Below are positions 19,880 to 33,950 of a stretch of DNA of 33,950 nt, one piece after another; within the stretch, counting starts at the first letter, position 1, and each line of letters begins with the position of its first letter. The translations under genes were made by a program, and so were the position numbers. The DNA comes from Candidatus Sulfobium sp. (lineage in GTDB: Bacteria; Nitrospirota; Thermodesulfovibrionia; Thermodesulfovibrionales; UBA6898). A model generated the notes under the pieces. It had not been told where the DNA came from and searched no databases. It worked only from the letters and a program-made list of their open reading frames with translations. Location: contig JARRRI010000056.1 in the NCBI GenBank assembly GCA_037380845.1, positions 1 to 33,950 of the forward strand, given 5' to 3'.

Positions 19880-20404
19880 ATGTCAGCCAACGATCCGGAG
19901 CAATTAATAGTTCACTTGCCCCCGGGCACGGCAATTCCGTGCAGGGCCTGGCGGCCCGGACCTCACACCGACTTTCTGGTGAGAGAGGATTCAGGGGTCA
20001 TAAACGACCTCAGTGACTCCTCCATCGTACTCAGACACGGCCTGTTTCTGACCGGGGAGGTAGCCTTGGTGCCGGTCATGTTCCGGATCGGCCCCGACGA
20101 TGATAGATTGTTTGAAACGTGGTTCAACTACCATGGCGGCGAGGCGGGCCCTTCTCACTTCCGCGATCTCGGGACTCAGGAGAACATCCATTTTCACCTT
20201 TACGGGGACAGCAGGACCAGGGAAAAGACCCTGGCCATAATCAACAACTCAAAAAATTTTTTCAGGAAGGCCGTTGCCCTCATAATACACATCGAACCGT
20301 GGACGGAAGACGAGTTCGACAGGGCCAGGGCGCAAATCTTTCACAGGCATCCTTCCCCTGATTCCCTCTGGAAAAATCTGTTCTCGGAAAGCGGAAGGCG
20401 ATAG
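19880..20404 (+). CDS. Hypothetical protein
   Basis: ATG 19880 behind GAGG with TATAAT just upstream; normal codon composition; no recognised motif. Confidence 0.7.
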   Translation: MSANDPEQLIVHLPPGTAIPCRAWRPGPHTDFLVREDSGVINDLSDSSIVLRHGLFLTGEVALVPVMFRIGPDDDRLFETWFNYHGGEAGPSHFRDLGTQENIHFHLYGDSRTREKTLAIINNSKNFFRKAVALIIHIEPWTEDEFDRARAQIFHRHPSPDSLWKNLFSESGRR

Positions 20405-20693
20405 AAGGTTTCTTCTGATATTTCCAGCCAGCCGGCTATGACGGGCCTGCAACCGGTCTTTCTCTTTCTGGCGCAAAATAAGATATTTATCAAGGGAAAG
20501 GAGAAACAAGTGAAAGCGGTAAGCGGTATTGTTCATTCATAGCGCAGGGTAACATATTTTCGCTTAAATAAAATCAAGGTGACCTTTGGTAAAGTAATTT
20601 TCTTCAAAAACAAAACCAGACGAGACCGCTCGGACAAGAGTGCGAAAAATACTTGACAATGGCGTCGGAGCAAGAAGGCGGGAAGGGAAATTT

Positions 20694-22345
20694 TCACCTG
20701 AAATCTTTCAGATATTTTTCGGCTCCCTTCGGGTCGTGGAAAACGGACTCCTCGAGCCTTTTGAACCTCATCATTCTTTCCTTGTCAAAATGGCCGGCCT
20801 TTTCTTTCATCAGGCCGATTTGCCCGTACGCCCGGTCGGCCCGCCTCAAGGCATCCCGGTATTTTAAGGGGTCTGTCTTTATAGAGAAATCCCCCGGGGC
20901 CTTCCATTTGTCCCTCATAAAGAACCACGAGGCAAAATCGACGAGCTTTGAGCCCTGAAGGGGGACGATCCGGGTGGTGTTCCTGAGACCCACGATGCGG
21001 AGACCGTTTTTGTCAGCCACGATCTTCTGCGTCCCTTTAAAGGGGAGCGAGCCCTGATCGTCCCTGACTGGTCCTTCATTAATATGGGCGGGCTCTGTAT
21101 GCCGTAATAAAGGGAATACTTCTTGAAGGGGTTCGGCCTGCCACCGACTTCCCCGGGCCCCCAGATCGTGAGCTGATACCCCCTCAGCTCGCTTATATGG
21201 CAGGTGGCGCAATCCATATCTTTATGTATGCTCCTTGCCAGGGCGTCTTCAGCCTCGATATGGCAGTCCTGGCAGGTGGCCTTCCTGATCATGTCGCCCA
21301 TACCTTTCGGGCCCATAAGATGGCAGTCCGTGCACTGTATTCCCTTTGTGTAATGGACATCGGGTTTCATGCCCTCGGGGACCGAGTAAGATCCTCCAAG
21401 GTAAGTTTCGCCTCTTCGGCTCTGCATGGCACCGGTGTGGCAGATGCTTGTGCCACGGCCGTCGCCCGCGCAGCTTTCAGCCGGTGGCTTTCTGACAAAA
21501 TTATGCACCCCGTTTTTTCTGTTTGGGGCGTAATGGCAATCAAGACAGCCCGCATGGCATACGTTACAGAACTTCTGCTTCAGCTCCGCCTGTCTGCGGG
21601 TAAAATTAACATTTAACTCCGCTGCTATTTTTTCGGTGTTCGCATAATCGAGGCCGCTTCCGTCGATCCTTTCTGCGGGTTGCAGGTCGGCAAAGGAGGG
21701 GCCGCAATTGTGGGGCCCGTAAGGCTCAAGCCAGCTCTTCATGGTGCGCTGCCTGCGGTTGGAGCCCATGTCCGTAATCTCAAACTGTTTAAGCTGGTCC
21801 TGATGACAGGAGGGTTTTGCGCAGGTCTTTTCGGCGATTGCCGGGTCAAAATTCAAGGTCTCCGGGTTCCTGTCGTGCCAGAGGAGGTTCCTCACCTGCG
21901 GGTTTACATACACCTTGCCGTTGTACTTCACCTTGGGCAGAAGCTGCCTTATGCCGGCCGGGCCGGTGGGCAGGAGGGCGCCGGAAAACACGTCCCTCCT
22001 GTTTAAAACGTTCCCGTCATACCCGATGAAAAGCGCCTTCAGCATGCCCTTGTGTGCCTGGTCCGCTTTCCCGGCCCTGCCGTTTCCAAGATGGCAGTCC
22101 CGGCACGTCACGTTCTGATGGTGACTCTGCCTGGCGACCATCTCAGGGGTGACATAAAGCTGGGGGTAACCGAGCGATGCCATCTCTTCTCTGTTTCCAT
22201 GACATGCCACGCACCCGGCACTCGAGTTCACCCACGCCTTGTATCCGGAAGCAGCGATCACGAGAAAAAACTGGAGGGCAAGAAAGCCAAGAACAACTTT
22301 CTTAGTAAAGATCCTTTTAATATGGCCGGAATTGAAAACCTTCAC
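20694..22345 (-). pseudogene. Multiheme cytochrome c interrupted by a frameshift/internal deletion near 21067
   Basis: N-terminal anchor, 7 CxxCH plus CAKPSCH up to PPILMKDQ; protein-like sequence resumes in another frame (RDDQGSLPFKG...DFASWFFMRDKWKAPGDF) ending at 20694. Confidence 0.75.
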
Positions 22346-22450
22346 GCTGGCCTTCTTATAAACCTAACATATCGGGGGCGTTCTTCTCAAATCGGCCTGC
22401 GCTACGGAGCCAATCTGTGATTTCCCGATACGGAACAATCTTCGGCAAGA

Positions 22451-22690
22451 TGTCGAAAAACTCCTGATCGCCTCTCAGGTCAAGTCTGTCATTCTCGCAG
22501 GCCCCGACCAAGTCGGGACGGGCTCCGCGCACCTGCCGGCAGGCAGGTCGGAAATCCTTTCTGAAAACAAAGAATGTTTCCCGTGAAGGTCGGGACAGGC
22601 CGGACGGGCCGGAATGACGGAAGAAGTGGATATCATGAAATTTCAATTTTGAGACACGTTCCGGAAAACGTGTAAAAAAATTTTTCGACA
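22451..22690. repeat. Composite REP/MITE-like intergenic element
   Basis: Outer inverted repeat TGTCGAAAAA (22451-22460)/TTTTTCGACA (22681-22690); inner GTCATTC...GAATGAC pair; CCTGCCGGCAGGCAGG palindrome at 22532-22547. Confidence 0.6.
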
Positions 22691-22694
22691 GGCG

Positions 22695-22997
22695 CTAAAG
22701 CACAATTACCACATCCGATTCGCTGCTCATAAGGGCATTGTCGAATTGGCTTCCACGTGTTATTTCCGCGGGGAGCGGTCCTGTCTTTACATTCTCCTTT
22801 TCAGCGCTGTGAGTGCAAAACGCCATCCGGACCCTTTCGAGCCTGCAGAGGCCCGAATACTCCGGTTTTTCCAGAAACCTTGTGCCGGAGTCCATCGCAA
22901 ATATGCTGACCTCATGCCCCCGTAAAAGCGCCTCGTTTGTAATGCCGACCACATCTTCGAGACATTTATCCGTGTTGACGAGTATGCCGAGTTTCAT
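22695..22997 (-). CDS. DsrE/TusD-like sulfur-relay protein
   Basis: MKLGILVNTD...GHEVSIFAMDSGTRFL...FCTHSA...GSQFDNALMSSESDVVIVL; RBS AAGGAGG. Confidence 0.85.
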   Translation of the reverse strand: MKLGILVNTDKCLEDVVGITNEALLRGHEVSIFAMDSGTRFLEKPEYSGLCRLERVRMAFCTHSAEKENVKTGPLPAEITRGSQFDNALMSSESDVVIVL

Positions 22998-23023
22998 CTT
23001 AAGCACCTCCTTTAAATTCTTAT

Positions 23024-23220
23024 TATCCCGCTTTGTCCGTAAATCTCACGTCATGGCGAAAGGACATAGCGTTTGAGCGCCTGCCTGCCGGCAGGCAGGG
23101 CTTTACTTGGCCGATACTCAGACAGTGTGTATCCTGAAGTAAAGAGTGCAAGTTGCTCGTAGCGAAGCGAGAATGAGGGAAAATACTGTGTCCTTTCGTC
23201 TCCTCCACGTCTACCATGAA
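23024..23220 (-). repeat. Hairpin repeat element, copy 1 (MITE-like), carrying an inserted 20-bp palindrome
   Basis: Reverse complement closely matches 27961-28140 (shared GTGGAGGAGACGAAAGGACACAGTATTTTCCCTCATTCTCGCTTCGCTACGAG); extra CCTGCCTGCCGGCAGGCAGG at 23080-23099. Confidence 0.85.
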
Positions 23221-23378
23221 ATCACCCTGTCGCTGGCCTCTATCATGTCCAGAAGAAGGGAGTAATCCTTGCCTCCCCTGAGGTCGAAAATAACAATTTC
23301 GTTGCCCTTTTCCTGTTCCCTCATGAAATCTTCCACCGTGCCGTCGGGTCCGCCGTGAAAAATGTAAAGTATCTTCAT
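23211..23378 (-). CDS. DsrH/TusB-like small protein, 55 aa (not in ORF track)
   Basis: GGAGG RBS; MKILYIFHGGPDG...DYSLLLDMIEASDRVISW*; the C-terminal DY..L..I...D.VISW pattern is DsrH-like. Confidence 0.75.
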   Translation of the reverse strand: MKILYIFHGGPDGTVEDFMREQEKGNEIVIFDLRGGKDYSLLLDMIEASDRVISW

Positions 23379-23398
23379 TTCACCTCCATCCTTCCTGT

Positions 23399-23643
23399 TC
23401 AGTACGGCAATACGTGGTCATACACCGGAAGCAAATTTGCGATGTCCCTTGTCGGTATGAATTCAAGTCCGCTGCTGCCTTCCAGATTGGTGTATAATTT
23501 TATTCCCATCTCCTTCATTGTTCCCATGTTCATTATGTTTTCCTGCGAGTCTTCCACAGGCCTGTCCAGGACAAAAACGTCGACGGTATCTTCAAGCAGG
23601 GTCATCCCTAGCGACATCCGCAGCGCCTCTCCCTGCCTGTCCT
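23399..23643 (-). CDS. DsrF/TusC-like protein (5' end lacks a clear start)
   Basis: KDRQGEALRMSLGMTLLEDTVDVFVLD...IANLLPVYDHVLPY; first ATG is at 23617 but family-like residues extend upstream; 23643 is an approximate boundary, not a start codon. Confidence 0.7.
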
Positions 23644-23671
23644 TCGGGATTTTTACTCGGCAGGGAAAGAT

Positions 23672-23716
23672 TTGACTTTAGAGAATGTCCATAACTATAA
23701 TGTGGTTAACTATAAT
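23672..23716 (+). promoter_or_regulatory. Sigma70 promoter and direct repeat in the divergent dsrF/yeeE intergenic region
   Basis: TTGACT (23672-23677), 18 nt, TATAAT (23696-23701); TAACTATAAT occurs twice (23692-23701, 23707-23716). Confidence 0.55.
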
Positions 23717-23840
23717 TAAATAAAGACGGTTTTGAGGTAACACAGCTTTTCGTGGGACGTAAAGAGGAGGTACGGGCGCTATTCGTATTTTCTACGTTGT
23801 TTTCACCCAGTTTGCGGCCGGCCTGGCGCTTGGCGCAATA

Positions 23841-24935
23841 ATGTACAGGTCCGACTTCTGTATTGCAGGGGCGTTCCGGGACATTTTCCTGTTCAGGGAT
23901 TATCTCAGGCTGAGGGCCCTACTACTTCTGGTTGCCCTCCTGGCCTTTTCTCTTTACCTGATGAGATCTTTTCAGGTCATATCCACCTATCCCCCATCTT
24001 TCTTTGGCATGCCCTCGGCCGCGAGCCTGCTGGGAGGGTTCCTGTTCGGCGCAGGCATGGTACTCGGCGGCGGTTGCCTGCTCGGCACCCTATACAAGCT
24101 TGGCGGGGGGAGTATGGCGAGCGCCATTACTTTTTGCGGCGTACTTTTCGGGGGAATAACCTCGGCTGCGCTCTATCCCTTTGTTCGCTCCTTCGTGTAT
24201 GCGACCGCCCTTTTTTCATCGAAAACCGCCCTGGAACATATAATCGGGAGCGCCGCGATCCCCGTGTTTGCGGCCTCTCTCGTAATGATGGTTCTTGCGT
24301 GGAGATGGACAGGACAAAGAACGCGGCCGCAAAGGGCTGTCTATGCCAGGGGATATCTCGCCCCGTGGAAGGCGGCCTTCATGATGGCCGCAGTCATCAC
24401 GGCATTATTGGCCCTTTCCGGAAGGCCTCCTGCGGTAAACATGGGATTTGAGAAACTTTCCGGTATTCTGAGCGCAGCTGTGTTGCCGTCCGTCGCGGGA
24501 AAGATATCCTATTTCCATATCCAGTCACCGAGACTTCTTTACGGCAGCATAATGGATGGCGGGGCCGGTCCTGTTATGGATTCCATTGCTATTTCCCAAC
24601 TCCCTCTGATGGCAGGTATTGCCGGCGGCTCCCTTATATCTTCTTTAAGGCTCAGGGAATTTAGAATAAAACGTTTGCCCCCCGCCAGGCAGGCTTTTTC
24701 GGCCTTTGCCGGGGGAATGCTAATGGCGGCCGGGGCGTTTATGGCCGGGGGCTGTAACCTCTGGCATATGATCGGCGGTCTGCCGGTGCTGGCGCTCCAG
24801 AGTATCCTTTTTGTTTTCGGTATTGCAGGCGGTTCATATCTGGGGACCGCCTTCCTTAAAAAACAGATTCTCGAAGGGTGGAAGAAGGGAGGGTTGCAAT
24901 GGAAAACACGGCTGAAGACATCGTCCTTGACATAA
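23841..24935 (+). CDS. YeeE/YedE (TsuA-like) sulfur-compound transporter 1
   Basis: YRSDFC, LFGAGMVLGGGC, AFMAGGCN (three family Cys motifs); the first TM helix is encoded in frame upstream of ATG 23841. Confidence 0.9.
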   Translation: MYRSDFCIAGAFRDIFLFRDYLRLRALLLLVALLAFSLYLMRSFQVISTYPPSFFGMPSAASLLGGFLFGAGMVLGGGCLLGTLYKLGGGSMASAITFCGVLFGGITSAALYPFVRSFVYATALFSSKTALEHIIGSAAIPVFAASLVMMVLAWRWTGQRTRPQRAVYARGYLAPWKAAFMMAAVITALLALSGRPPAVNMGFEKLSGILSAAVLPSVAGKISYFHIQSPRLLYGSIMDGGAGPVMDSIAISQLPLMAGIAGGSLISSLRLREFRIKRLPPARQAFSAFAGGMLMAAGAFMAGGCNLWHMIGGLPVLALQSILFVFGIAGGSYLGTAFLKKQILEGWKKGGLQWKTRLKTSSLT

Positions 24936-25150
24936 GAGGACAGATATGTCCGGCATGCCTGCTGATAACCCTGAGTGAGCTGAATAGCAACCGGGAAAGG
25001 CTGACGGGGGCAAAGGCCAGGCTTGTTGTCAAAACAGACCACCGGGACGCTACAAGGACCATACCGGGCGCGGCCCTCGCCATGGGGTACGGCGTGACGG
25101 TCGTTCAGAAAGAGAGGCATTACGAGATAACCCTGGAGCATAAAGAATGA
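24899..25150 (+). CDS. TusA-family sulfur carrier with CPxC motif
   Basis: LDIRGQICPACLL...VKTDHRDATRTIP...MGY; overlaps both neighbouring genes. Confidence 0.85.
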   Translation: MENTAEDIVLDIRGQICPACLLITLSELNSNRERLTGAKARLVVKTDHRDATRTIPGAALAMGYGVTVVQKERHYEITLEHKE

Positions 25151-26442
25151 GCGGAACCGGCGAATTCCTGGAAGCGGACCTGAGGGCAAGCAATGAAGGC
25201 CTGAAAAAATACATCAGGGACAAGGTAAACCACCTCCTTTCCGTTATGGGCACGAAACCCCTCTGCGAGGAGGAGCTGGACGACAATACCCTGATAGAAC
25301 TCGACCCGATAGGAATAATAGCGCTTTCGTTCGAACAGATACTGGAGCATCAGAAAGAGACAAACAGGCGGCTCACCGTCGCAAAGGACCAGTTGCAGGC
25401 AGTCTTTGACACCGCCGGGGTCTGCATATCGATAATCGACGGGGACATGAGGATCGTAAACTGCAACGAAAAGCAGAAAGATCTCCTCGTCTCCCCAAAT
25501 ACAGACGTAATCGGAAGGCACTGCTACGAGATTTACTGCGGCAAGGACTCGCCGAGCCTGGGCTGCCCGGCCGTTGAAACCCTCGCCACGGGCAAACCGG
25601 TCTTTATCCGTGAGGTGGAAAAAAAGAACAGGCATTTCCAGATAGTGACGTCCCCGCTGAAGGACGAAGACGGCAAGGTCACGGGCGTAATCGAGGTCTC
25701 GATAGACGTGACCGAAAAGAAGAAAGCGGAGCAGCTCATGCGCCAGGCCGAAAAGCTCACGGCGATAGGGCTACTGGCCGGCGGCATAGCCCATGAGCTG
25801 AATAACCCGCTCGGCAACATCATCGGTTACGCTACGCTGCTCCTGAAGGACAAGCAATCCGGCCTGGGGCCGGAGCACAGGGAGAAGCTTGAGGTAATCG
25901 TGGAACAGGCGAAAAAAGGCAGCGAGATCATAAGGGGGCTTCTGGATTTCTCTCGTCAGTCCGTCCCCTCGTTTTCAGACGTGCCCTTGAATGAAATTAT
26001 CAGGAAAACCGTCCGCACCCTCCAAAACAGAATTAGTTTGCAGAAGATAAGAATCGATACCGAGCTTGCCGAAAAGCCGATTGTACGGGCGGACCCGCGC
26101 CAAATCGAGCTTGTTGTACTGAACCTGCTCCTTAATTCGGTCCAGGCCTTTGAAGGAATAGACAGGAAAGACAAGGTCATCTCGATAAAAACCGGCCGTG
26201 AAAATAATTTCTATGAGGTCCGGATAGCGGATAACGGACCCGGAATACCTGAAGAGATACTTCCCGGCATATTCGACCCTTTTTTCACCACAAAACCTAT
26301 CGGTAAAGGAGTGGGGCTGGGGCTGTCGATCTGTTCGGGCATCATCAGGGAGCATAAGGGCTCAATTCGTGTCAGCAGCGAGATCGGGAAAGGCACTGAA
26401 TTCATCTTTACGCTTCCGGCGGCAGTGTCCAAAACCGGCTAG
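25147..26442 (+). CDS. Soluble PAS-domain sensor histidine kinase
   Basis: PAS (HCYEIYCG...GCP), H-box GIAHELNNPL, N-box NLLLNS, DNGPGI, FDPFFTTK, GLGLS; no TM helix; ATGA overlap with tusA. Confidence 0.93.
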   Translation: MSGTGEFLEADLRASNEGLKKYIRDKVNHLLSVMGTKPLCEEELDDNTLIELDPIGIIALSFEQILEHQKETNRRLTVAKDQLQAVFDTAGVCISIIDGDMRIVNCNEKQKDLLVSPNTDVIGRHCYEIYCGKDSPSLGCPAVETLATGKPVFIREVEKKNRHFQIVTSPLKDEDGKVTGVIEVSIDVTEKKKAEQLMRQAEKLTAIGLLAGGIAHELNNPLGNIIGYATLLLKDKQSGLGPEHREKLEVIVEQAKKGSEIIRGLLDFSRQSVPSFSDVPLNEIIRKTVRTLQNRISLQKIRIDTELAEKPIVRADPRQIELVVLNLLLNSVQAFEGIDRKDKVISIKTGRENNFYEVRIADNGPGIPEEILPGIFDPFFTTKPIGKGVGLGLSICSGIIREHKGSIRVSSEIGKGTEFIFTLPAAVSKTG

Positions 26443-26456
26443 AAAGGAGGGCCTTT

Positions 26457-27803
26457 TTGTTCAGGGTTCTTGTAGTCGAGGACGATTTGAGGATGAGGGG
26501 CCTCATAAAGGAGCTCCTTGAAAAGCAGGGCTACAGCGTCACGTCCAGCCCTGATGGAAGGAATGCCGTTTTGCTTATCAAAGAGCACGCCTTTGATGTC
26601 ATCCTTACGGACCTGAAAATGCCGGACCTCGACGGGATGGACGTCCTGTCCTGCGCAAGAGAGGAAAGTCCCGGTACGCCAGTTGTCATGTTCACGGGTT
26701 ATGCGACGGTCAATTCCGCCGTTGAGGCCATGAAAAAAGGGGCCTATGACTACATAGAGAAACCTTTTGAACCCGATATCCTCCTGCTTACGGTAAAGAG
26801 GGCGGCGGAATACCACAGGCTGGTCGATGAGAACCTGAAACTCTCGATCAAGCTTGAAAGGTCTTTCGGTCTTGATTTTGTAGCTTCAACCAGGGCGATG
26901 ACGGAGCTTAAGAAGATGGTGGAGAAAGTGGCCCCGCTGGACACGACGGTGCTTATACAGGGGGAAACCGGGACGGGGAAGGAGATGATCGCGAAGCTCA
27001 TACACAGGCTCAGCCCCAGGGTTGAAGAAAAATTTCTGCCGATAAATTGCGGCGCTCTTCCCGACACGCTGATAGAGGCCGAGCTTTTCGGATATGAAAA
27101 AGGCTCTTTTACAGGCGCTTCCGGTCAGAAGAAAGGGCTCTTCGAGGCGGCCAACGGGGGTACGATCTTCCTTGACGAGATAAACAACGCTTCCCATTCT
27201 CTTCAGATAAAATTGCTCAGGGTATTGCAGGAGGGAAACTTCATGAGGGTGGGCGGCGTTGAGCCGATAACGGTAAACGTGCGCGTGATCGCCGCCTGCA
27301 ACGCAGACCTCGCTAAAGAGGCACAGGAAGGGCGGTTCAGGAAGGACCTGTTTTATCGCCTTAATATAATCACCCTGTCAGTCCCGCCCCTGAGGGACAG
27401 AAAGAACGATATCCCCTGCCTTGCCCACCATTTTCTTTCCAAGTACCGCAAACGGTTCTCGAAAGAAATAACTTCCTTCTCTCCGGAGGTCATGACGGCG
27501 TTGGCTGAATATCCCTGGCCGGGAAACGTCAGGGAACTGGAAAACTGTATGGAACACGCTGTCGTAATCGAAAACTCAAAAGAGATAACCCTTAGGTCTA
27601 TACCAAAAGAAATTCTTAGAACCAAACACAGGGCTGATCCTTTCGAGCAGCCCGGCGTCTTCAGGCTTGAGGAAACGGAAAGGTTGCTCATACAAAAGGC
27701 TCTACTGGCATTTGACGGCCAAAAGGCTAAAGCGGCCGAAGCCCTCGGCATTAGCGTCACAACGCTTTGGAGAAAATTGAAGAAGCTGAACCTGGAAGAC
27801 TGA
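26457..27803 (+). CDS. Sigma54-dependent response regulator (NtrC/AtoC family)
   Basis: Receiver domain, GETGTGKE, ELFGYEKGSFTGA, FLDE, FRKDLFYRL, WPGNVRELEN, Fis-type HTH. Confidence 0.95.
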   Translation: MFRVLVVEDDLRMRGLIKELLEKQGYSVTSSPDGRNAVLLIKEHAFDVILTDLKMPDLDGMDVLSCAREESPGTPVVMFTGYATVNSAVEAMKKGAYDYIEKPFEPDILLLTVKRAAEYHRLVDENLKLSIKLERSFGLDFVASTRAMTELKKMVEKVAPLDTTVLIQGETGTGKEMIAKLIHRLSPRVEEKFLPINCGALPDTLIEAELFGYEKGSFTGASGQKKGLFEAANGGTIFLDEINNASHSLQIKLLRVLQEGNFMRVGGVEPITVNVRVIAACNADLAKEAQEGRFRKDLFYRLNIITLSVPPLRDRKNDIPCLAHHFLSKYRKRFSKEITSFSPEVMTALAEYPWPGNVRELENCMEHAVVIENSKEITLRSIPKEILRTKHRADPFEQPGVFRLEETERLLIQKALLAFDGQKAKAAEALGISVTTLWRKLKKLNLED

Positions 27804-27840
27804 GCCGTCTTACGCTTCTCGCTGCCCCTCACCGGAAGTA

Positions 27841-27871
27841 TTTCAAAATGAAAACTTTTTGCATATTGAAA
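27841..27871 (+). promoter_or_regulatory. Tandem palindromic upstream activator sites (putative enhancer for the sigma54 regulator)
   Basis: TTTCA-AAA-TGAAA (27841-27853) and TTGCA-TAT-TGAAA (27859-27871). Confidence 0.6.
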
Positions 27872-27960
27872 TGAACTAATCTGCCATTCCGGCCTTTCCC
27901 GACCTTCGCGAGGAATTCCCTCCGGAAACAAGATTCCAAAAGTGCTTGCAGTAATTGTCC

Positions 27961-28140
27961 TAACCCGGATTATTCATGGAAATGTGGAGGAGACGAAAGG
28001 ACACAGTATTTTCCCTCATTCTCGCTTCGCTACGAGGAACTTGCCCTCTTTACTTCAGTTACATACTGCCTGAGTATCGGGCAGGTAAAGCCTCTCAAAC
28101 ACTATGTCCTTTCGTCATATCGCAGAATTTATGAACATGC
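27961..28140 (+). repeat. Hairpin repeat element, copy 2 (MITE-like)
   Basis: Homologous to 23024-23220; internal inverted repeat GACGAAAGGACACAGT (27992-28007)/ACTATGTCCTTTCGTC (28101-28116), 15/16 match. Confidence 0.85.
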
Positions 28141-28151
28141 TTACCCCTGTC

Positions 28152-28168
28152 CTGGCATCCCGCTTGCT
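28152..28168 (+). promoter_or_regulatory. Sigma54 (-24/-12) promoter
   Basis: CTGGCATCCCGCTTGCT: GG (28154-55), 10 nt, GC (28166-67); next to a sigma54 activator gene. Confidence 0.8.
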
Positions 28169-28236
28169 GTTTACGAATCGATAAACCCCATTTTTCAAAA
28201 AAATAAATAGACGGGGTTTCCGGGGAGGTAATAAGT

Positions 28237-28782
28237 ATGAACGAGGCAATCGCTCTTGTCTCACTTGGCGAGATAGGCGAAGGGATTCTCGATAACATAA
28301 GGGATGCCGCCCGGACTACCTTTGGCGCGGAGGTAACAATAATTGAGGAAACCGGTGGCCGGACGGAGTCTGGCGGTGCCTTGCAATCCGCCGCATCGGA
28401 TGTAATCAGGCACCTGTTCCCCTTTCGGTCCGCATTTGGAAGGGTGCTTGGTGTCACGAATACGGATCTTTCCCATCCAGGAGTAAATCACGTCTTCGGT
28501 TTTGCCGATCCTGAATCGCGGGTATCGGTAATGTCTCTCTTCCGTTTCCGCACACAAGGGGCTATGCCCGGAAAGGTTGCCGGGCGGGCCGTAAAGACGG
28601 CGGTACACGAACTTGGACACACTTATGGCCTCAGCCACTGCACGAAACATAAGTGCGTCATGTTTTTCTCTTTCAATCTCTCGGACACGGATTACAAGGG
28701 CCGTGAATTCTGCAAGAAATGCAGGGAAGAGATTGACTCTCGAATTAAGAACCAATTCCGGAAAGAAAAGGAGGTTGCTTAA
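28237..28782 (+). CDS. Archaemetzincin-like Zn metalloprotease
   Basis: HELGHTYGLSHC-x4-CVM...FCKKC; VLGVTNTDL...VFGFA. Confidence 0.88.
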   Translation: MNEAIALVSLGEIGEGILDNIRDAARTTFGAEVTIIEETGGRTESGGALQSAASDVIRHLFPFRSAFGRVLGVTNTDLSHPGVNHVFGFADPESRVSVMSLFRFRTQGAMPGKVAGRAVKTAVHELGHTYGLSHCTKHKCVMFFSFNLSDTDYKGREFCKKCREEIDSRIKNQFRKEKEVA

Positions 28783-28784
28783 CG

Positions 28785-28970
28785 ATGAGCGGTGAAGCTA
28801 AGGCGGGTTTGACCCTGCGGTGGCTTTGGGCGGCTGTAATCATAGCCTTTGTGGCGATGTGGTTTATGCTTCCGCCCTGGGACGCGCCACTGAAGGGGCT
28901 TGCAAAGACAAAGATTCATACCCAGGCCCCTAACGACCTCAAAGAGCAATCCAGTGACCTGGTCTTCTGA
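28785..28970 (+). CDS. Small single-TM protein
   Basis: 61 aa; hydrophobic WLWAAVIIAFVAMWFML; GGAGG RBS; tight operon spacing. Confidence 0.6.
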   Translation: MSGEAKAGLTLRWLWAAVIIAFVAMWFMLPPWDAPLKGLAKTKIHTQAPNDLKEQSSDLVF

Positions 28971-28984
28971 GGGATGGAGCGGCA

Positions 28985-29545
28985 ATGAATGACAAGATGC
29001 TGACTTTAACAGAAAAAACTGATGAAAAGACGCGGCAAAAAGGAGCTCTGTTCGCCTTTTATCCTCTCATCATGGTGTCTATTTTGCTGGCGGCATCAGC
29101 CTCTTTCGCAGGGGATGTTTTCATTTGGGGCGTGGCAAATGCATCCGGCAGTTCCGCCCAAACCTCTTCTGGACAGCCTTTGAAGGTCACTAATGAGCGG
29201 CCCGTAACAGTCTTGTTTTCCTTTGCTGTAAAAGGGGATGTTTCAAAGGTAAGGTTCACCATCTCCCGGAGCGACAGGGACGACGGCGTTACTCTACTTG
29301 AGGATACGGTAAAGGTTAAAGGTAATATCGCTGCGTCGCACCTGTTGCTGGACATCCACAGGGGAATCCCCCTTGGCAGACACGACCTTTACATCCAGGC
29401 ATTCGACGCAGTAAAGAACGTGAAAATCCTCACCGGCAAATTGCCTTACATACTCTTGCCTTCCGGCTCGGAATGCATGTGCCAAAGCACTCCGGCGAAT
29501 AAAAAATCAGAAACTACAACAGAAGGAGGTATCGAACATGCTTAA
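28985..29545 (+). CDS. Exported beta-rich hypothetical protein with ECMC motif
   Basis: Signal-like ILLAASASFA; alternating beta strands; IPLGRHDL. Confidence 0.7.
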   Translation: MNDKMLTLTEKTDEKTRQKGALFAFYPLIMVSILLAASASFAGDVFIWGVANASGSSAQTSSGQPLKVTNERPVTVLFSFAVKGDVSKVRFTISRSDRDDGVTLLEDTVKVKGNIAASHLLLDIHRGIPLGRHDLYIQAFDAVKNVKILTGKLPYILLPSGSECMCQSTPANKKSETTTEGGIEHA

Positions 29546-29999
29546 ACGGGCAAGACCCGGTTTCAGGATTGTGATCTGTCTGGTTTCGTGCATCGTTATG
29601 GGCCTGGGTATATTTTTTACCGGCCCCGGTACGCAAAGGGATGCCGGAGCGGCGCTGGCCGACGAAACGCCGGACGCGCAATTTGCCTGGCACGCGAACC
29701 GTCCCGGCATCACCAGGGCGCAGATAGCCCTGGGCAGGGCCACCCGCCTGCGGTTTGAATTCACATTGAAAAACGCCGATGGGACGAATGTGAAATTCGG
29801 CATTTCCAAGAAATATGCCGAGATGGGGATAAGCATTACTCCTAACGAGGTTGCCGTCGCAAACGGGATGGCAAAGTCCAGGGCAGAGTTTTCCTGTCCG
29901 CCCGGCATGCCCCTGGGAAAATTCGACATGCTGGTTGTAATGGTGGACGCAAAGACAAAAAAGATACTGGGCAAGGGGATAATCCAGTTCATTGGATGA
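29538..29999 (+). CDS. Exported/anchored beta-rich hypothetical protein (probable paralog of the previous gene)
   Basis: AGGAGG RBS; N-terminal hydrophobic helix; MPLGKFDML. Confidence 0.7.
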   Translation: MLKRARPGFRIVICLVSCIVMGLGIFFTGPGTQRDAGAALADETPDAQFAWHANRPGITRAQIALGRATRLRFEFTLKNADGTNVKFGISKKYAEMGISITPNEVAVANGMAKSRAEFSCPPGMPLGKFDMLVVMVDAKTKKILGKGIIQFIG

Positions 30000-31395
30000 T
30001 TTCGATTTTGGAGTACGAGGATGGCTGAAGGCCTGGAATAAGAAGTTCTTCCGTGAAAAATGGCCCCTCTGGCTTGCAGCGGTCTTCATGGCGATCTCCG
30101 GTATCATGACGTATGCAATTGCGGTCTGGTCGCTGGCAAGGACCGTCAGCGGAGATAATCCATATGACCAGTCCAAACCGATCGGCACCTTCCTCGGTTT
30201 AAAGGAACTGGGAGGGCTTATAAACAATCTCCTGGGGAAGATAGGGCTTCCGCATTACCCTTTCAGCGGCTATGTCTGGCCTGACGGCACCGTAAATTTT
30301 TTCAGACAGCTTCCGAATCCTATCCTCGAACCGACTGTGGGTACAATGCTCGGCATCCTCTTTGGAGGCCTGGTAGCGGCCCTCCTGGCCAAAGAGTTCG
30401 CTCTGAAGGTGCCCCTCGACAAGAGCGAATACGGCCTCGCCTTTAGCGGCGGCCTGCTGATGGGTTTCGGCACGATCTTCATGTTTGGCTGTCCGCTGGC
30501 GAGCACCACGAACACAGGCGCGATGGGGGTGCAGGCCGTACTGATGATAATGGGGATGACAATAGGTTCCTATTTCGGGGCGAAGATAATAGTATGGCTG
30601 GAAAAACGACGAATGGCGCTCGAGCTCGCTTTAAGCGACGGCGCAGGCTACAGGCCGCTGATGCACTTCGAAAAAACACGGACAATATGGCCGAAACTCC
30701 CCGGGACGGCCGACGGGGCTGAGCCGGGTTCTATCAAATACCAGCCGCACCTTGCCCTGGCGCTCATGGTGGTGATGCTCTTCGTGCTCTTCAGGTTCGG
30801 CAATATGGGTTATCCGGCGCTTGCGCTTTCCTTTGCGGCTGCCGCACTTACAGGCTTTGCGATGCAGCGCGGGAGCATGTGCTTCGCCCACGCGTACCGT
30901 GAGCCGTTCCTCTCGGGGTTCGCGGACATGTCCAGGGCGATGGCGCTCCTTTATATCTTGCTGATACTTGGTTTTCTGCCAATGAAACTGCTTGCCGTGG
31001 CCAACCCGGACCTCGCTTATGCCGAGATTTTTGCTGTAAGCCCGGCTGGAATGGGCGTGGTGCTCGGAGGGATCCTCTTCGGCCTGGGTATGTCGCTGAA
31101 CGGGGCCTGCGTCAGCGACAGCCTCTGGAGGACTGCCGAGGGGCAGGTAAAAATATGGGTCGGCCTTCTGACCCTCATATGCGTTTCCGCGTGGCTGTTC
31201 CCGATGCGTGAAGAAGCCTGGTTCAAACACATCTTTGCCCCCTACGGCTCGCAGAACATAAGAGATGTGTATCTGCCCAACATCCTTGGAAGCTATCCGC
31301 TTGCGATCGCTCTGACGATAGGATTGGTCATCCTCTGGGCGGTGATGATGACCTGGTTCAGCGGCAGGACGTTCAAAAAATACATGGAAGGCTGA
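29992..31395 (+). CDS. YeeE/YedE (TsuA-like) sulfur-compound transporter 2
   Basis: GGLLMGFG..FGCP, MQRGSMCF, LFGLGMSLNGAC; followed by a TusA/YeeD gene. Confidence 0.9.
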   Translation: MDDFDFGVRGWLKAWNKKFFREKWPLWLAAVFMAISGIMTYAIAVWSLARTVSGDNPYDQSKPIGTFLGLKELGGLINNLLGKIGLPHYPFSGYVWPDGTVNFFRQLPNPILEPTVGTMLGILFGGLVAALLAKEFALKVPLDKSEYGLAFSGGLLMGFGTIFMFGCPLASTTNTGAMGVQAVLMIMGMTIGSYFGAKIIVWLEKRRMALELALSDGAGYRPLMHFEKTRTIWPKLPGTADGAEPGSIKYQPHLALALMVVMLFVLFRFGNMGYPALALSFAAAALTGFAMQRGSMCFAHAYREPFLSGFADMSRAMALLYILLILGFLPMKLLAVANPDLAYAEIFAVSPAGMGVVLGGILFGLGMSLNGACVSDSLWRTAEGQVKIWVGLLTLICVSAWLFPMREEAWFKHIFAPYGSQNIRDVYLPNILGSYPLAIALTIGLVILWAVMMTWFSGRTFKKYMEG

Positions 31396-31431
31396 ATGTG
31401 GGAAGAAAAATAAATTTTCAAAGGAGGACAT

Positions 31432-31668
31432 ATGAGCACGGAGACAAAAGTCAGCGAGAGACTGGACGTAAAGGGGCTGGTCTGCCCCAGACCGATGGTA
31501 ATGACGATGAGCAAGCTGAAAGCAATGGGCCCCGGGGAGGTCCTGGAGGTGGTCGCAAATGACAGCAGTGTTAAACACTCCATTCCGTCGCTCTGCGAGA
31601 GGGGCGGATACAATCTATTGTCTCAGAGAGACGAAGGAGGTGAATTCATTTTTTTGATACAGAAATAA
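31432..31668 (+). CDS. TusA/YeeD-family sulfur carrier
   Basis: LDVKGLVCPRP...GEVLEVVAND; AGGAGG RBS. Confidence 0.93.
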   Translation: MSTETKVSERLDVKGLVCPRPMVMTMSKLKAMGPGEVLEVVANDSSVKHSIPSLCERGGYNLLSQRDEGGEFIFLIQK

Positions 31669-31734
31669 TTATGCTTATCAGAGGGAGAACAGAGCCGTGC
31701 GAACAGTCAAAATAAGGAGGTCAGGGAGGTAACA

Positions 31735-33075
31735 ATGCTAAAGCAACCGAAGAGGAGAACAAGTTTGCACCTTTTCCTGGTGCTTGCACTTGCTCTTGTG
31801 TTCCCGGGCTGCGGTGGCGGAGGGGGATCAACAAGCTACGATACTCCTTCCACCACCTCAACGGGCGTTGTAGTAAACGCAACGACGGTCAAAGACTGGG
31901 TAGACAGCGGAAAAGTAAACGGAACCGGCTATGACAAGGTGGTGATTCTCGACATCGACACAAGTTCGGCCAGCTACGCGACTGGCCATATTCCCGGCGC
32001 CCAATTTGTGAGCTGGGGTAGCCTCATAGAAAACCGCAACGGGGGGGTCCTTACTGACATCAATATGGTACTGGACGGCCCCACAATGGACGCCCTCGTC
32101 CAGCAATACGGAATCGACAAGAACACCACTATTGTATTTACCAGCGCGCGATCCACGGCAGGGAGCATCTCGGCTTATTATTTCGTTGGCAGGGCTTATT
32201 GGACCTTCCGCTATTGGGGGTTCCCGAAGGACAGACTCAAGGTGCTTAACGGCCTCGACGCCGCCTATGCCGACGCCTATGGCTTGACCGGTGACGCGTC
32301 CCCGGTTGCACCTTCCACTTACAGCGTCCGGCAGAATCCATCATTCAGAGGGGATCTCAGGGCCTCACTGGGTGAGATGATCGATATCGCGGACGGCAAG
32401 GTACCGAACGCCATCGTAATAGACACCAGGGGAGAAGACGGAGACGCATATGGTACAACAACATCTTCCTACAATGGAGACCCTCTAAAGACCACCGGGG
32501 TGTATGAGTCAGGTACCTATGTGGTATTTGAGGGCCACGTCAAGGGAGGTATCGCGATTAACTCTAATTACTTCTTCAAAACGGTGACCGGGACGAGTCA
32601 AACTTACAAGGTCCTCTTGCCCGCCTCGGACATGGCGGCGCTGATGGCCGCAAACGGCATTGACTCAACGGAAACGTCTGTCGTCCATTGCCGCACCGGT
32701 GTCATCGCCTCAGGTGCCTTTATGGCGATTGACGGCGTCCTTGGCTGGCCGGTCGCCAATTGGGACGGCTCATGGAGTCAGTGGGGAATGCTGTCGGGAT
32801 CGGCGGCCAACTGCGGTTCTCTGGCCGCCAATTCACCCTGGCGGACGGACATCAACGGTCGCACACAAGACCTTACTTACAATTACCCTACAGGTGGTCT
32901 GAGCGACTGCAGCGAGATAGAAGATCCGACGAATGGCGGCGTGTACCCCATAAACTCATTCGATACCAACCTCAACCGGATCAATGAAGAGGACAGCACC
33001 TATTTCTCCTCTTCCTCTGGAGGCGGCGGCACCAGCGGCGGTGGAGGCAGCGGAGGAGGGCCTATAGGATGTTAG
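31735..33075 (+). CDS. extH: Tandem-domain rhodanese/sulfurtransferase lipoprotein (ExtH-like)
   Basis: Lipobox-like FPGC, GHIPGA, RAYWTFRYWGF, EGHVKGG, active-site HCRTG, WDGSWSQW; directly upstream of an ExtI-like porin. Confidence 0.8.
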   Translation: MLKQPKRRTSLHLFLVLALALVFPGCGGGGGSTSYDTPSTTSTGVVVNATTVKDWVDSGKVNGTGYDKVVILDIDTSSASYATGHIPGAQFVSWGSLIENRNGGVLTDINMVLDGPTMDALVQQYGIDKNTTIVFTSARSTAGSISAYYFVGRAYWTFRYWGFPKDRLKVLNGLDAAYADAYGLTGDASPVAPSTYSVRQNPSFRGDLRASLGEMIDIADGKVPNAIVIDTRGEDGDAYGTTTSSYNGDPLKTTGVYESGTYVVFEGHVKGGIAINSNYFFKTVTGTSQTYKVLLPASDMAALMAANGIDSTETSVVHCRTGVIASGAFMAIDGVLGWPVANWDGSWSQWGMLSGSAANCGSLAANSPWRTDINGRTQDLTYNYPTGGLSDCSEIEDPTNGGVYPINSFDTNLNRINEEDSTYFSSSSGGGGTSGGGGSGGGPIGC

Positions 33076-33137
33076 CGAAAAAAAGAGCAGCACTGGTTAA
33101 GACTCACTGCGCGCTACTTACAGGGAGGAGGGGAATC

Positions 33138-33950
33138 ATGAAGGGAGCAAAAGAAAAGCTACTGCTGTTTGCGCTGATTGTCGTTTCGCTCGTTCTTGCG
33201 GCCGGGAACACATATGCGTTTTCCCCGATAGTTATGGGCAGCGAGGGGGCCTTTCTCAAGATAGATTACCAGGGCCAGCTATACGGCGTCTGGAGGAGCA
33301 CGGGCTCGGGGGCCAGCGGGGAGGACGATTCCACCGACATTTTTTTCAGAAGAAACAGGCTCAGCGTGTGGGCACATGGTGCAAGCAAGTATGGAGCGAT
33401 CTTACAGATCGAGTACGTCGGCGAAAGGAACATAAATGACCTTATCGTACGCGACGTGCCGGGTACCGAATTCCACCTGCTGGATGGTTACTTCATGGCG
33501 GATTTCAGCAACGAATTCAGGGTCTACGCGGGCAAGCAGAAAATACAGCTTACGAGGGAAAACCTTGAAGACTGCTTCGAACCCCTGACGCTGGACCGTT
33601 CACTTTTCATTTACACGCTCAAACACAGCAGGGACACAGGCGTTGTGCTCTGGGGCAACCTGCCGACCATCAAGAGCCAATATAGAGTCGAAGTCTCGAA
33701 AGGCAATAGCGGCAACGACGCCCCTCAGGACAACTTCATGTACACGGCCCGGTTTCACGTGTCCCTCTGGAGCCCCGAATACGCCTATGGATATAAAGGA
33801 ACATACCTGGGCAAGAAAAAGGTGCTGACCTTCGGTGTGGCCGGGCAGTTCGAGCCTGATGCCGTGTATAGCGATACCATTGCGAAGACCGGGGCAAAAA
33901 CCTACTACGCATATACGGTCGACGCCTTCATGGAATACCCGCTTGCCGAC
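33138..33950 (+). CDS. extI: Outer-membrane porin, ExtI-like (partial, runs off the window; not in ORF track)
   Basis: GGAGG RBS, signal peptide; LKIDYQGQ...FRRNRL...TRENLEDCFEPLTLDRSLF...RDTGVVLWGN...YGYKGTYLGKKKVLT resembles Geobacter ExtI as recalled; 271 open codons to the edge. Confidence 0.8.
   Translation, partial: MKGAKEKLLLFALIVVSLVLAAGNTYAFSPIVMGSEGAFLKIDYQGQLYGVWRSTGSGASGEDDSTDIFFRRNRLSVWAHGASKYGAILQIEYVGERNINDLIVRDVPGTEFHLLDGYFMADFSNEFRVYAGKQKIQLTRENLEDCFEPLTLDRSLFIYTLKHSRDTGVVLWGNLPTIKSQYRVEVSKGNSGNDAPQDNFMYTARFHVSLWSPEYAYGYKGTYLGKKKVLTFGVAGQFEPDAVYSDTIAKTGAKTYYAYTVDAFMEYPLAD

Follow-up and report, generated by a model that had tools for sequence, protein, structure and literature searches.

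A Nitrospirota gene block uniting YTD-type sulfur relay genes, ExtH-ExtI and a sigma54 two-component system

The closest described counterpart of the locus reported here is the YTD cluster, whose published core consists of a YeeE/YedE protein, a TusA protein, two small proteins and a protein related to DsrE (PMC13293266, PMC12998232) and which, as DsrEFH type II, takes sulfur from TusA and gives it to DsrC in vitro (PMC13293266). Parts of the locus also recall the Geobacter sulfurreducens cluster extHIJKLMNOPQS (PMC5877670, PMC6148476, PMC13510729), in which a rhodanese lipoprotein is encoded beside a porin, the Escherichia coli pair TsuA-TsuB (YeeE-YeeD; PMC11073785), in which a YeeE-family membrane protein works with a TusA-family protein, and SoxT1B of Hyphomicrobium denitrificans, a YeeE-like protein that serves as the signal-import unit for the regulator SoxR (PMC11582611). 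The passage of polysulfide or thiosulfate through the outer membrane and periplasm is stated to be unknown for S0-respiring bacteria (PMC13510729) and for sulfur-disproportionating bacteria (PMC13490349). Here we describe a 13-kb gene block at positions 20694-33950 of contig JARRRI010000056.1 from Candidatus Sulfobium sp., a marsh bacterium of the Nitrospirota; the window that we analysed is this entire contig (C56, 33,950 nucleotides (nt)), one of 104 in a host genome of 3.18 Mb. We judge it reasonably probable that the block encodes an inducible uptake system for sulfane sulfur (polysulfide, S0-derived sulfur or thiosulfate) that feeds DsrC/DsrAB and in which a YTD core is joined to ExtH-ExtI under its own sigma54 control.

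A preliminary description of this stretch had listed two YeeE/YedE transporters, two TusA-family carriers, DsrE/F/H-like genes, a rhodanese lipoprotein, a porin, a multiheme cytochrome c and a kinase/activator pair, and had read them as one sulfur/selenium path, an interpretation that our analysis partly supports. All of these components are present at the positions given for them, as judged from open reading frames (ORFs), Pfam and NCBIfam (Table 1). The block is organized in three transcription units, within which coding regions abut or overlap. Unit 1, of the sigma70 type, encodes YeeE1, TusA1, a soluble PAS kinase and a sigma54 activator (plus strand, 23841-27803); unit 2, of the sigma54 type, encodes an archaemetzincin-like protein, a membrane protein of 61 amino acids (aa), p186, p153, YeeE2, TusA2, ExtH and ExtI (plus strand, 28237-33950); and unit 3 runs divergently on the minus strand in the transcription order F-like, H-like, DsrE-like, cytochrome. 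The entire layout, with its order and orientation, repeats in four other distinct loci (L063, L064, L065/L066 and L067), where L065 and L066 are apparently one contig filed twice and L064, whose compared proteins are identical to those of L048, is counted with it once. Protein identity across the five distinct loci, the window included, ranges from 45 to 95%, and the proteins of L063, a metagenome-assembled genome labelled Candidatus Sulfobium sp., are 72-95% identical to those of the window.

Partial or reordered forms of the block occur in seven further distinct loci (L051, L038, L040, L037, L127, L121 and L122), and several of these bring the units into direct contact. A tandem rhodanese, E and F stand immediately ahead of YeeE2-TusA2-ExtH-ExtI in L051, and E-F-H lies between the archaemetzincin gene and YeeE2 in L127, L121 and L122, which places DsrE/F/H genes within the YeeE2/TusA2/ExtH/ExtI operon in some relatives (L051, L121, L127). 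The genes of unit 1 run on into genes of unit 2 in L038 (YeeE1-TusA1-kinase-activator-p186-p153-ExtH-ExtI) and in L037 (YeeE1-TusA1-kinase-activator-ExtH). A wider view came from a scan for the family of the DsrE-like protein (E103) in one genome per species, which gave 158 loci; the E-centred tallies in this text refer to the 80 of these that were kept, mostly from Nitrospirota and also from Rokubacteria, Gammaproteobacteria and Desulfobacterales. Neighbours were identified from ORFs that we called ourselves and from BLAST matches at E <=1e-5, and the genomes are related, so the counts are not independent. Beside the DsrE-like gene we found TusA in 52/80 loci, YeeE2-type genes in 33/80, a rhodanese protein in 29/80, YeeE1-type genes in 27/80 and a sigma54 activator in 25/80.

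This conservation bears on the simplest alternative, that there is no single system and that genes for assimilatory thiosulfate uptake, carriers of the tRNA-thiolation type and an unrelated porin and regulator are chance neighbours. Such genes are indeed common in the host, where YeeE-family genes occur at five loci and DsrE-family ORFs are numerous, and most ExtH-ExtI pairs stand alone. Chance association is nevertheless hard to reconcile with a 13-kb gene order that is kept in five distinct loci, window included, at 45-95% identity and reshuffled elsewhere, with overlapping or abutting coding regions, with regulatory elements that are conserved and unique, and with the relocation of E and F into the ExtH operon in L051; we consider it very improbable. 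The gene-neighbourhood comparison that had been proposed as a check thus found conserved co-localization, and the recurrence of the arrangement, together with a palindrome and a -24/-12 promoter that follow the activator gene in 6/6 loci, speaks for the earlier view of one regulated system. The parallel claim that the combination had not been described fails for the core, which is published as YTD; it stands for the linkage of that core to ExtH/ExtI, to the two-component system and to a further YeeE-TusA pair. The parts are of known kinds, namely YTD/DsrEFH type II, ExtH-ExtI and an NtrC-type system. As far as our searches of the literature reach, we found no description of ExtH/ExtI joined to YeeE/TusA/DsrE or of the kinase-linked pair, and what is new to that extent is the union in one regulated block, the second YeeE-TusA pair linked to a kinase and the proteins with C-terminal cysteines.

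The control region comprises the elements expected of an NtrC-type two-component system: a regulator with receiver, AAA+ and helix-turn-helix (HTH) parts, a kinase, a -24/-12 promoter, a palindrome upstream of it and, in the host genome, rpoN. Ahead of unit 1, the sigma70 promoter has a -35 block that is invariant in five aligned loci. The kinase has no transmembrane (TM) segment, and its PAS domain carries five cysteines (Cys 93, 106, 126, 131 and 140) that are invariant in 8/8 sequences. The palindrome retains one perfect half-site in the window and is unique in the host genome; a search of the window with the 36-letter palindrome consensus at up to three mismatches gave no match because the right arm has diverged, and a half-site search did locate it. 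A -24/-12 promoter beside the kinase/activator pair had been claimed from the first reading, and the site is confirmed by equivalents in L064, L065, L067, L051 and L038. The genome has 14 strict sites in all, this one among them. The motif is not enriched over the whole window (10 matches vs 13.6 expected), and the site at 28153 counts because of its position and its conservation in relatives. In L063, L064, L065 and L067 the F-H-E-cytochrome unit has a -24/-12 site of its own upstream. With its YeeE-TusA pair, its PAS kinase rich in Cys and its sigma54 activator, unit 1 is a candidate sensor of reduced sulfur with a defined DNA target.

The two YeeE-TusA pairs belong to broad families and lie outside the curated subfamilies, for which NCBIfam profiles were used and scores were judged against the curated cut-offs. 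With the models for TsuA/TsuB thiosulfate uptake (NF052577, NF041049, NF041048), YeeE1 scored 91.1 and YeeE2 65.3 bits where the TsuA cut-off is 400, and TusA1 scored 16.2 and TusA2 15.6 bits where the TsuB cut-off is 147.5. With the YedE/YedF models (NF033796, TIGR04112, NF008242), YeeE2 scored 97.3 bits, its best NCBIfam match (YedE/FdhT), and YeeE1 76.4 where the cut-off is 350, and TusA2 scored 54.9 and TusA1 22.9 where it is 79. The likeness to E. coli TsuA-TsuB (PMC11073785) stops at the pairing of the two families; the pairs described here score far below the equivalog cut-offs, stand in a dissimilatory context and are accompanied by an outer-membrane module. Cys 18 and Cys 55 of TusA2 and both cysteines in the CPAC motif of TusA1 are invariant in 9/9 sequences. 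YeeE2 has nine TM segments, and its orthologues are 72-95% identical.

The first pair differs from the second in its setting. The TusA1 stop codon overlaps the kinase start, and the transcription of YeeE1 and TusA1 together with the kinase suggests a sensory arm rather than a second bulk importer. The SoxT1B-SoxR system (PMC11582611) offers a parallel, in that one of two YeeE-like proteins is encoded beside the regulator and could import a sulfur signal; the regulator there is an ArsR-type repressor, whereas the present block pairs a sigma54 activator with a PAS kinase that is soluble and rich in Cys and whose gene overlaps that of TusA1. The 5' end of YeeE1 is unusual. Its first TM segment is encoded ahead of the first ATG (23763-23843), in a frame that contains no ATG, GTG or TTG after the preceding stop, and a non-canonical start codon is likely because relatives show the same upstream frame with synonymous changes; coding of YeeE1 probably begins at such a codon upstream of the ATG at 23841.

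The DsrE/F/H-like genes named in the preliminary description proved genuine, though too divergent for family models. E103 matches Pfam DsrE at only E 0.04, PF02635 is detected in 6/23 homologue clusters of its family, and a profile of the family searched against Protein Data Bank (PDB) sequences returned a chance match alone (E 1.5). The fold is clearer: the AlphaFold2 (AF2) model of E103 has a mean pLDDT of 96.6, its top Foldseek matches are DsrE, DsrF, TusD and YchN (2hy5_A, TMq 0.83; 2d1p_A, TMq 0.80), and Cys 64 is invariant in 19/19 sequences. An F-like homologue adjoins E in 65/80 loci and an H-like one in 66/80. When the E, F and H proteins of L048 were modelled together as three chains, the score was 0.94 vs 0.60 for the best control, a mark attained by 116/157 solved complexes and 2/215 mismatched pairs; the runs share at least 95% of contacts, partner pLDDT is at least 89, and H contacts both E and F. 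This pass may mirror likeness to known complexes, because DsrEFH and TusBCD are already solved, and by prediction only E, F and H would form a heterotrimer.

In these features the block resembles YTD/DsrEFH type II, with which it shares a YedE-like protein, a TusA, a DsrE-like protein with one conserved Cys, two small proteins invisible to Pfam, matching taxa and a predicted assembly of the three small proteins. It differs in that the trio is divergently transcribed and followed by an octaheme cytochrome gene, the H-like protein has only 55 aa and YeeE-TusA is present as two pairs; the block further contains ExtH-ExtI, an archaemetzincin, the two-component system and two Ig-like proteins that carry a C-terminal Cys. 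The host genome has another DsrEFH-like set, nearer to the conventional size, at G000:C96:5546-6691 (L062), where three adjoining genes give weak TusB/DsrH, TusD/DsrE and TusC/DsrF matches.

The rhodanese lipoprotein and the porin are ExtH and ExtI; both exceed the curated NCBIfam cut-offs for these families. ExtH covers positions 8-430 of the 430 in its profile, with a lipobox Cys after a hydrophobic segment and a Cys in the active-site loop. ExtI covers positions 6-275 of 403; the contig ends within its gene, the remainder of which was not found on any other contig of the host genome. According to the title of a paper cited in PMC13510729, ExtI takes up selenite and governs the localization of ExtH. 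We surveyed 401 genomes sampled from the phylum and took neighbourhoods from 20 fetched loci. ExtH is present in 28/401 genomes, and ExtI adjoins it in 18/20 loci. A Gly-rich C-terminal arm with a terminal Cys characterizes the ExtH proteins of this clade (7/13). In 5/13 homologues read (L038, L042, L043, L051 and L052) the position of the active-site Cys is occupied by TGA, and 12/34 ExtH matches of the phylum contain one in-frame TGA; a TGA at that very codon is the mark of a Sec/Cys pair and suggests a selenocysteine rhodanese in several relatives. The host's own ExtH uses Cys. Its selD gene (G000:C20:72213-73058) carries an in-frame TGA, which indicates that the host makes selenoproteins.

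The preliminary description had proposed a look for extJ/extKL-like genes in sequence beyond 33950, where none are to be expected: the contig ends there, inside ExtI, and in the two fully or almost fully syntenic relatives examined that have sequence beyond ExtI (L048 and L051) we found no ExtJ, ExtKL or further cytochromes downstream, nor any protein with a CxxCH motif. The setting is thus not that of extHIJKLMNOPQS with its downstream cytochromes. What the block shares with the Geobacter cluster is a rhodanese lipoprotein beside a porin and a link to chalcogens; it differs in that ExtJ, ExtKL (MccSep) and ExtM-S do not follow ExtI in these relatives, in that the partners are importers and cytoplasmic carriers, and in that ExtH of this clade has a Gly-rich tail ending in Cys (PMC5877670, PMC6148476, PMC13510729). 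ExtH-ExtI can accordingly be viewed as a portable outer-membrane module that extends beyond the Geobacter cytochrome cluster.

The same two proteins raise the alternative of a selenium route, in which ExtI would admit selenite and ExtH and the YedE/YedF-like pairs would handle selenium, as supply or detoxification for a selenoprotein maker. NCBI labels ExtH and ExtI parts of a 'selenite/tellurite reduction operon', YeeE2 finds its best NCBIfam match in YedE/FdhT, TusA2 matches TusA and YedF about equally, and the host has the TGA-bearing selD, with Sec at the ExtH active site in relatives. In Geobacter ExtI has been implicated in selenite and tellurite reduction (PMC5877670, PMC6148476); the ext cluster has, however, been reassigned to polysulfide respiration via MccSep (PMC13510729). 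The YedE and YedF scores lie far under their cut-offs (97 vs 350 and 55 vs 79), the cluster rests on sulfur-relay families (DsrE/F/H-like proteins and a rhodanese), the host genome has dsrAB and dsrC, and an inducible operon of eight genes that includes an outer-membrane module would be oversized for a trace element. We therefore hold the selenium route to be quite unlikely and retain the sulfur reading.

The multiheme cytochrome c at the far end of unit 3 was likewise part of the original claim, and the gene is present; as a single ORF it did not stand, for the window copy is split over two frames that join at 21067/21068. Residues 1-432 and 524-645 of a 645-aa orthologue align in different frames, and the 91 aa missing from the window include the eighth CxxCH motif, which is present in 3/3 full-length orthologues. 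The protein has one N-terminal TM helix. The proposed coupling of the sulfur path to periplasmic electron transfer is seen in the closest clade only, the cytochrome accompanying the E gene in 6/80 loci (L065/L066 apparently being one record). This protein is the centre of a third alternative, reductive respiration, in which ExtH-ExtI would bring polysulfide or S0 to the periplasm, the octaheme cytochrome would reduce it as a counterpart of MccSep, and YeeE, TusA and DsrE would handle by-products. In relatives the cytochrome is co-transcribed with E/F/H behind a -24/-12 promoter, and it has a membrane anchor, an NrfH-like start and a weak likeness to NrfA-type enzymes (E 3.6e-4). In the Geobacter ext cluster, ExtKL (MccSep) is a periplasmic polysulfide reductase (PMC13510729). 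Similarity to ExtN, ExtO and NrfH is weak and sub-threshold, with 41 bits vs an Ext-family cut-off of 200, which places the cytochrome outside the curated Ext families, and its 6/80 loci compare with 65/80 for F, 66/80 for H and 52/80 for TusA. A crude six-frame scan of the genome for ORFs with five CxxCH motifs and an in-frame TGA gave one match, whose TGA is apparently a normal stop. The presence of two YeeE-TusA pairs and of a trimer in the cytoplasm further suggests sulfur meant for the cell interior. Reductive respiration thus seems unlikely, and uptake towards DsrC/DsrAB remains the reading that we prefer.

Four further proteins are encoded between the sigma54 promoter and YeeE2. The first gene of the operon encodes the archaemetzincin-like protein, which scores 124 bits with the NCBIfam model, under its cut-off of 145; it has an intact HExxHxxGxxH motif and no signal peptide, is cytoplasmic and is kept in 8/80 E-centred loci. 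For s61 there are 10 homologous ORFs in related loci, the duplicate pairs L048/L064 and L065/L066 included. In the paralogous p186 and p153, a Cys-x-Cys motif stands at the C-terminus of p186 in 6/6 sequences, and Gly-Gly-Cys terminates 8/8 p153 orthologues, with the window copy lacking the tail. No Pfam match was found for p153, a search of the ESM Atlas gave unnamed clusters only (best score 0.86) and no lead, and the AF2 model of an orthologue reached a pLDDT of 81.2. In SoxY, the carrier arm is a Cys motif on a flexible C-terminal end. The likeness of p153 and p186 to SoxYZ is one of design only: both are small beta-sandwich proteins that are exported and present a Cys on a flexible, Gly-rich C-terminus. 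They differ in being membrane-anchored, and no match to SoxY or SoxZ was obtained by sequence or by fold. In this locus and its relatives, the operon of the YTD importer and relay includes genes for a porin, for a rhodanese at the surface or in the periplasm and for two possible periplasmic carriers, which are candidates for the missing outer-membrane step.

At three places the window lacks sequence that its relatives have. The cytochrome gene is short by 91 codons and one base; the sigma54 promoter and first codons of F are missing at ~23641 (an alignment gap); and, relative to L063, 49 nt are missing that hold the p153 tail, the YeeE2 ribosome-binding site and the YeeE2 ATG. Contigs assembled from public runs (Logan) carry extra letters at exactly these places: 274 at 21067/21068 in X5 and X9, 98 at ~23641 in one X1 contig, and 50 at 29992/29993 in X1, X5 and X9 contigs, with X9 coming from a study other than the possible source runs. 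None of the public-run contigs listed bridges the window's own three junctions. Because independent contigs have the extra letters there, we read the deletions as assembly faults; the three are probably artefacts and the locus intact, with at most a minority strain that carries them, as contigs can drop rare variants. A decaying locus, which the cytochrome gap, the loss of the F promoter and the loss of the p153 tail might have indicated as pseudogenization, was rejected in view of these extra letters.

In the proposed scheme, in which the substrate, the direction of sulfur transfer, the use of C-terminal cysteines as carriers and the mode of sensing are inferred, the sigma70 promoter would maintain a basal level of YeeE1, TusA1, the Cys-rich PAS kinase and the NtrC-type activator. 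YeeE1 would let in a little of the sulfur compound, and TusA1 or the compound itself would modify the kinase cysteines; the phosphorylated activator would then bind the palindrome and open the -24/-12 promoter. Polysulfide, thiosulfate or sulfane derived from S0 would cross the outer membrane by way of the ExtI porin, the active-site Cys of ExtH would take up the sulfane, and p186, p153 and the ExtH tail, with their C-terminal cysteines on flexible arms, would hand the sulfur onward in the periplasm. YeeE2 would move it over the inner membrane, and TusA2 would deliver it to the DsrE/F/H-like trimer and so to DsrC/DsrAB, for dissimilatory use in disproportionation or oxidation. The octaheme cytochrome, co-transcribed with the trimer in this clade, could tie the pathway to the membrane electron chain. 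The host genome encodes DsrA and DsrB on C51 and DsrC on both C51 and C2. It also contains a paralogous locus of the same plan (G000:C24:38100-48070, L057). Encoded there are SoxB (836.8 bits, cut-off 550) and a double PhnD-like binding protein, a membrane kinase together with a sigma54 activator, YeeE and TusA, and a porin that resembles ExtI (136 bits, under the cut-off).

Several observations weigh against this scheme and are set out together here. The four YeeE and TusA proteins lie far under the curated NCBIfam cut-offs of the thiosulfate and selenium families, and because their scores are so far below those of TsuA/TsuB and YedE/YedF no substrate can be read from sequence. YeeE or TusA genes neighbour ExtH in only 5 of the 20 fetched loci, the ExtH-ExtI pairs of the other 15 having neither beside them, so that the link between ExtH-ExtI and YeeE-TusA holds for one clade. 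A search for the palindrome ahead of the F-H-E-cytochrome unit in relatives revealed no shared 9-mer, which makes that unit no more than a possible member of the same regulon. Fold searches with p153 gave generic Ig-like matches only (best Z 9.9) and no SoxY or SoxZ structure. No RNA run is among the public runs listed as holding the stretch. The deletions, if real in some cells, would leave those cells with a crippled system. The literature is also divided, since PMC13293266 and PMC12998232 disagree on whether YTD serves disproportionation or oxidation.

A further-reaching version of the uptake reading, which we regard as possible though on balance doubtful, is a full covalent relay for zero-valent sulfur from ExtI and the ExtH rhodanese (Sec or Cys) through the Cys arms of ExtH, p186 and p153 to YeeE2, TusA2 and a DsrEFH type II trimer, with a switch of a new sensor kind in which a YeeE-TusA pair would load sulfane onto the five-Cys PAS domain. 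If true, such a relay would be the missing route from outer membrane to cytoplasm for S0 and polysulfide in disproportionators and in oxidizers with reductive-type Dsr. What computation itself shows is the set of genes and their arrangement in operons, the conservation of promoters and enhancer, the synteny, the DsrE fold, the predicted assembly of E, F and H, the conserved Cys residues and the Sec/Cys alternative at the ExtH active site.

Table 1. Features of the block at 20694-33950, in order of position
Feature	Coordinates	Strand	Evidence or remark
Membrane-anchored multiheme cytochrome c (octaheme in relatives)	20694-22345	-	Pfam Cytochrome_C7, c3_2 (ORF 20915-22345)
Spacer	22346-22694		Dispersed repeat ~22482-22622; copies on C4, C35, C52
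E103, minimal DsrE-fold sulfurtransferase (predicted), 103 aa	22695-23006	-	Fold, invariant Cys 64
Dispersed repeat copy 1, ~175 nt, MITE-like	23034-23208		Between H and E genes
H55, 55-aa DsrH-like subunit	23211-23378	-	Conserved neighbourhood, predicted contacts with E and F
F, DsrF-like subunit (~90 aa in relatives)	23399-23617	-	Conserved neighbourhood; window copy without 5' end
Sigma70-type promoter, TTGACT-18 nt-TATAAT	23672-23701	+	11/12 matches, the region's best
YeeE1 (YeeE/YedE family)	23841-24935	+	Pfam Sulf_transp, E 2.3e-45
TusA1	24878-25150	+	Pfam TusA, E 4.2e-10
Soluble PAS histidine kinase	25147-26442	+	Pfam PAS_4, HisKA, HATPase_c
NtrC-type sigma54-dependent response regulator	26457-27803	+	Pfam Response_reg, Sigma54_activat (E 1.5e-67), HTH_8
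Enhancer-like palindrome, 34 nt, half-site TTCAAAATGAAA	27840-27873		Upstream of sigma54 promoter in 6/6 loci
Dispersed repeat copy 2	27984-28137		Between palindrome and -24/-12 promoter
-24/-12 promoter, TGGCAT-5 nt-TTGCT	28153-28168	+	One mismatch from consensus
Archaemetzincin-like metalloprotease	28237-28782	+	Pfam Peptidase_M54, E 2.1e-18
s61, 61-aa single-pass membrane protein	28785-28970	+	One TM segment
p186, anchored Ig-like protein, p153 paralogue	28985-29545	+	Alignment, TM segment
p153, N-terminal anchor, Ig-like sandwich and flexible tail	29538-29999	+	Alignment, AF2 model
YeeE2, 467 aa, YedE-like membrane protein	29992-31395	+	Pfam Sulf_transp, E 1.7e-32, two stretches
TusA2, canonical Cys-Pro motif	31432-31668	+	Pfam TusA, E 2e-21
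ExtH rhodanese lipoprotein	31735-33075	+	NF040901, 297.4 bits, cut-off 200
ExtI porin, N-terminal ~two thirds	33069-33950	+	NF040900, 287.7 bits, cut-off 150

Two ORFs within the block were examined as separate genes and rejected. The 172-aa ORF at 20694-21212 is the C-terminal part of the cytochrome, and the 96-aa ORF at 22356-22646 is probably not a gene, as it consists of repeat DNA, belongs to no family and has no homologue in related loci; the spacer that corresponds to 22346-22694 is only 11 nt long in L048. The Pfam search covered 20 ORFs of the window, of which 10 gave no family. Housekeeping genes fill bases 1-20600 (ribonucleotide reductase, EPSP synthase, PrmC, L31 and NadB among them), and among these genes, far from the cluster, lies another multiheme cytochrome c gene (1346-2206, 286 aa, c3/c7-type matches).

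The regulatory spacers of the cluster also hold two copies of a dispersed repeat, oppositely oriented and with an internal inverted repeat. A scan of 20000-33950 against Rfam at E up to 0.1 gave no match, and the repeat is therefore assigned to no known RNA family. Eighteen more copies of at least 100 nt occur on 16 other contigs of the genome. Contigs of X1 run into both cluster copies from either side, which fits with both insertions being real, and copy 2 stretches the loop between palindrome and promoter to ~300 nt.

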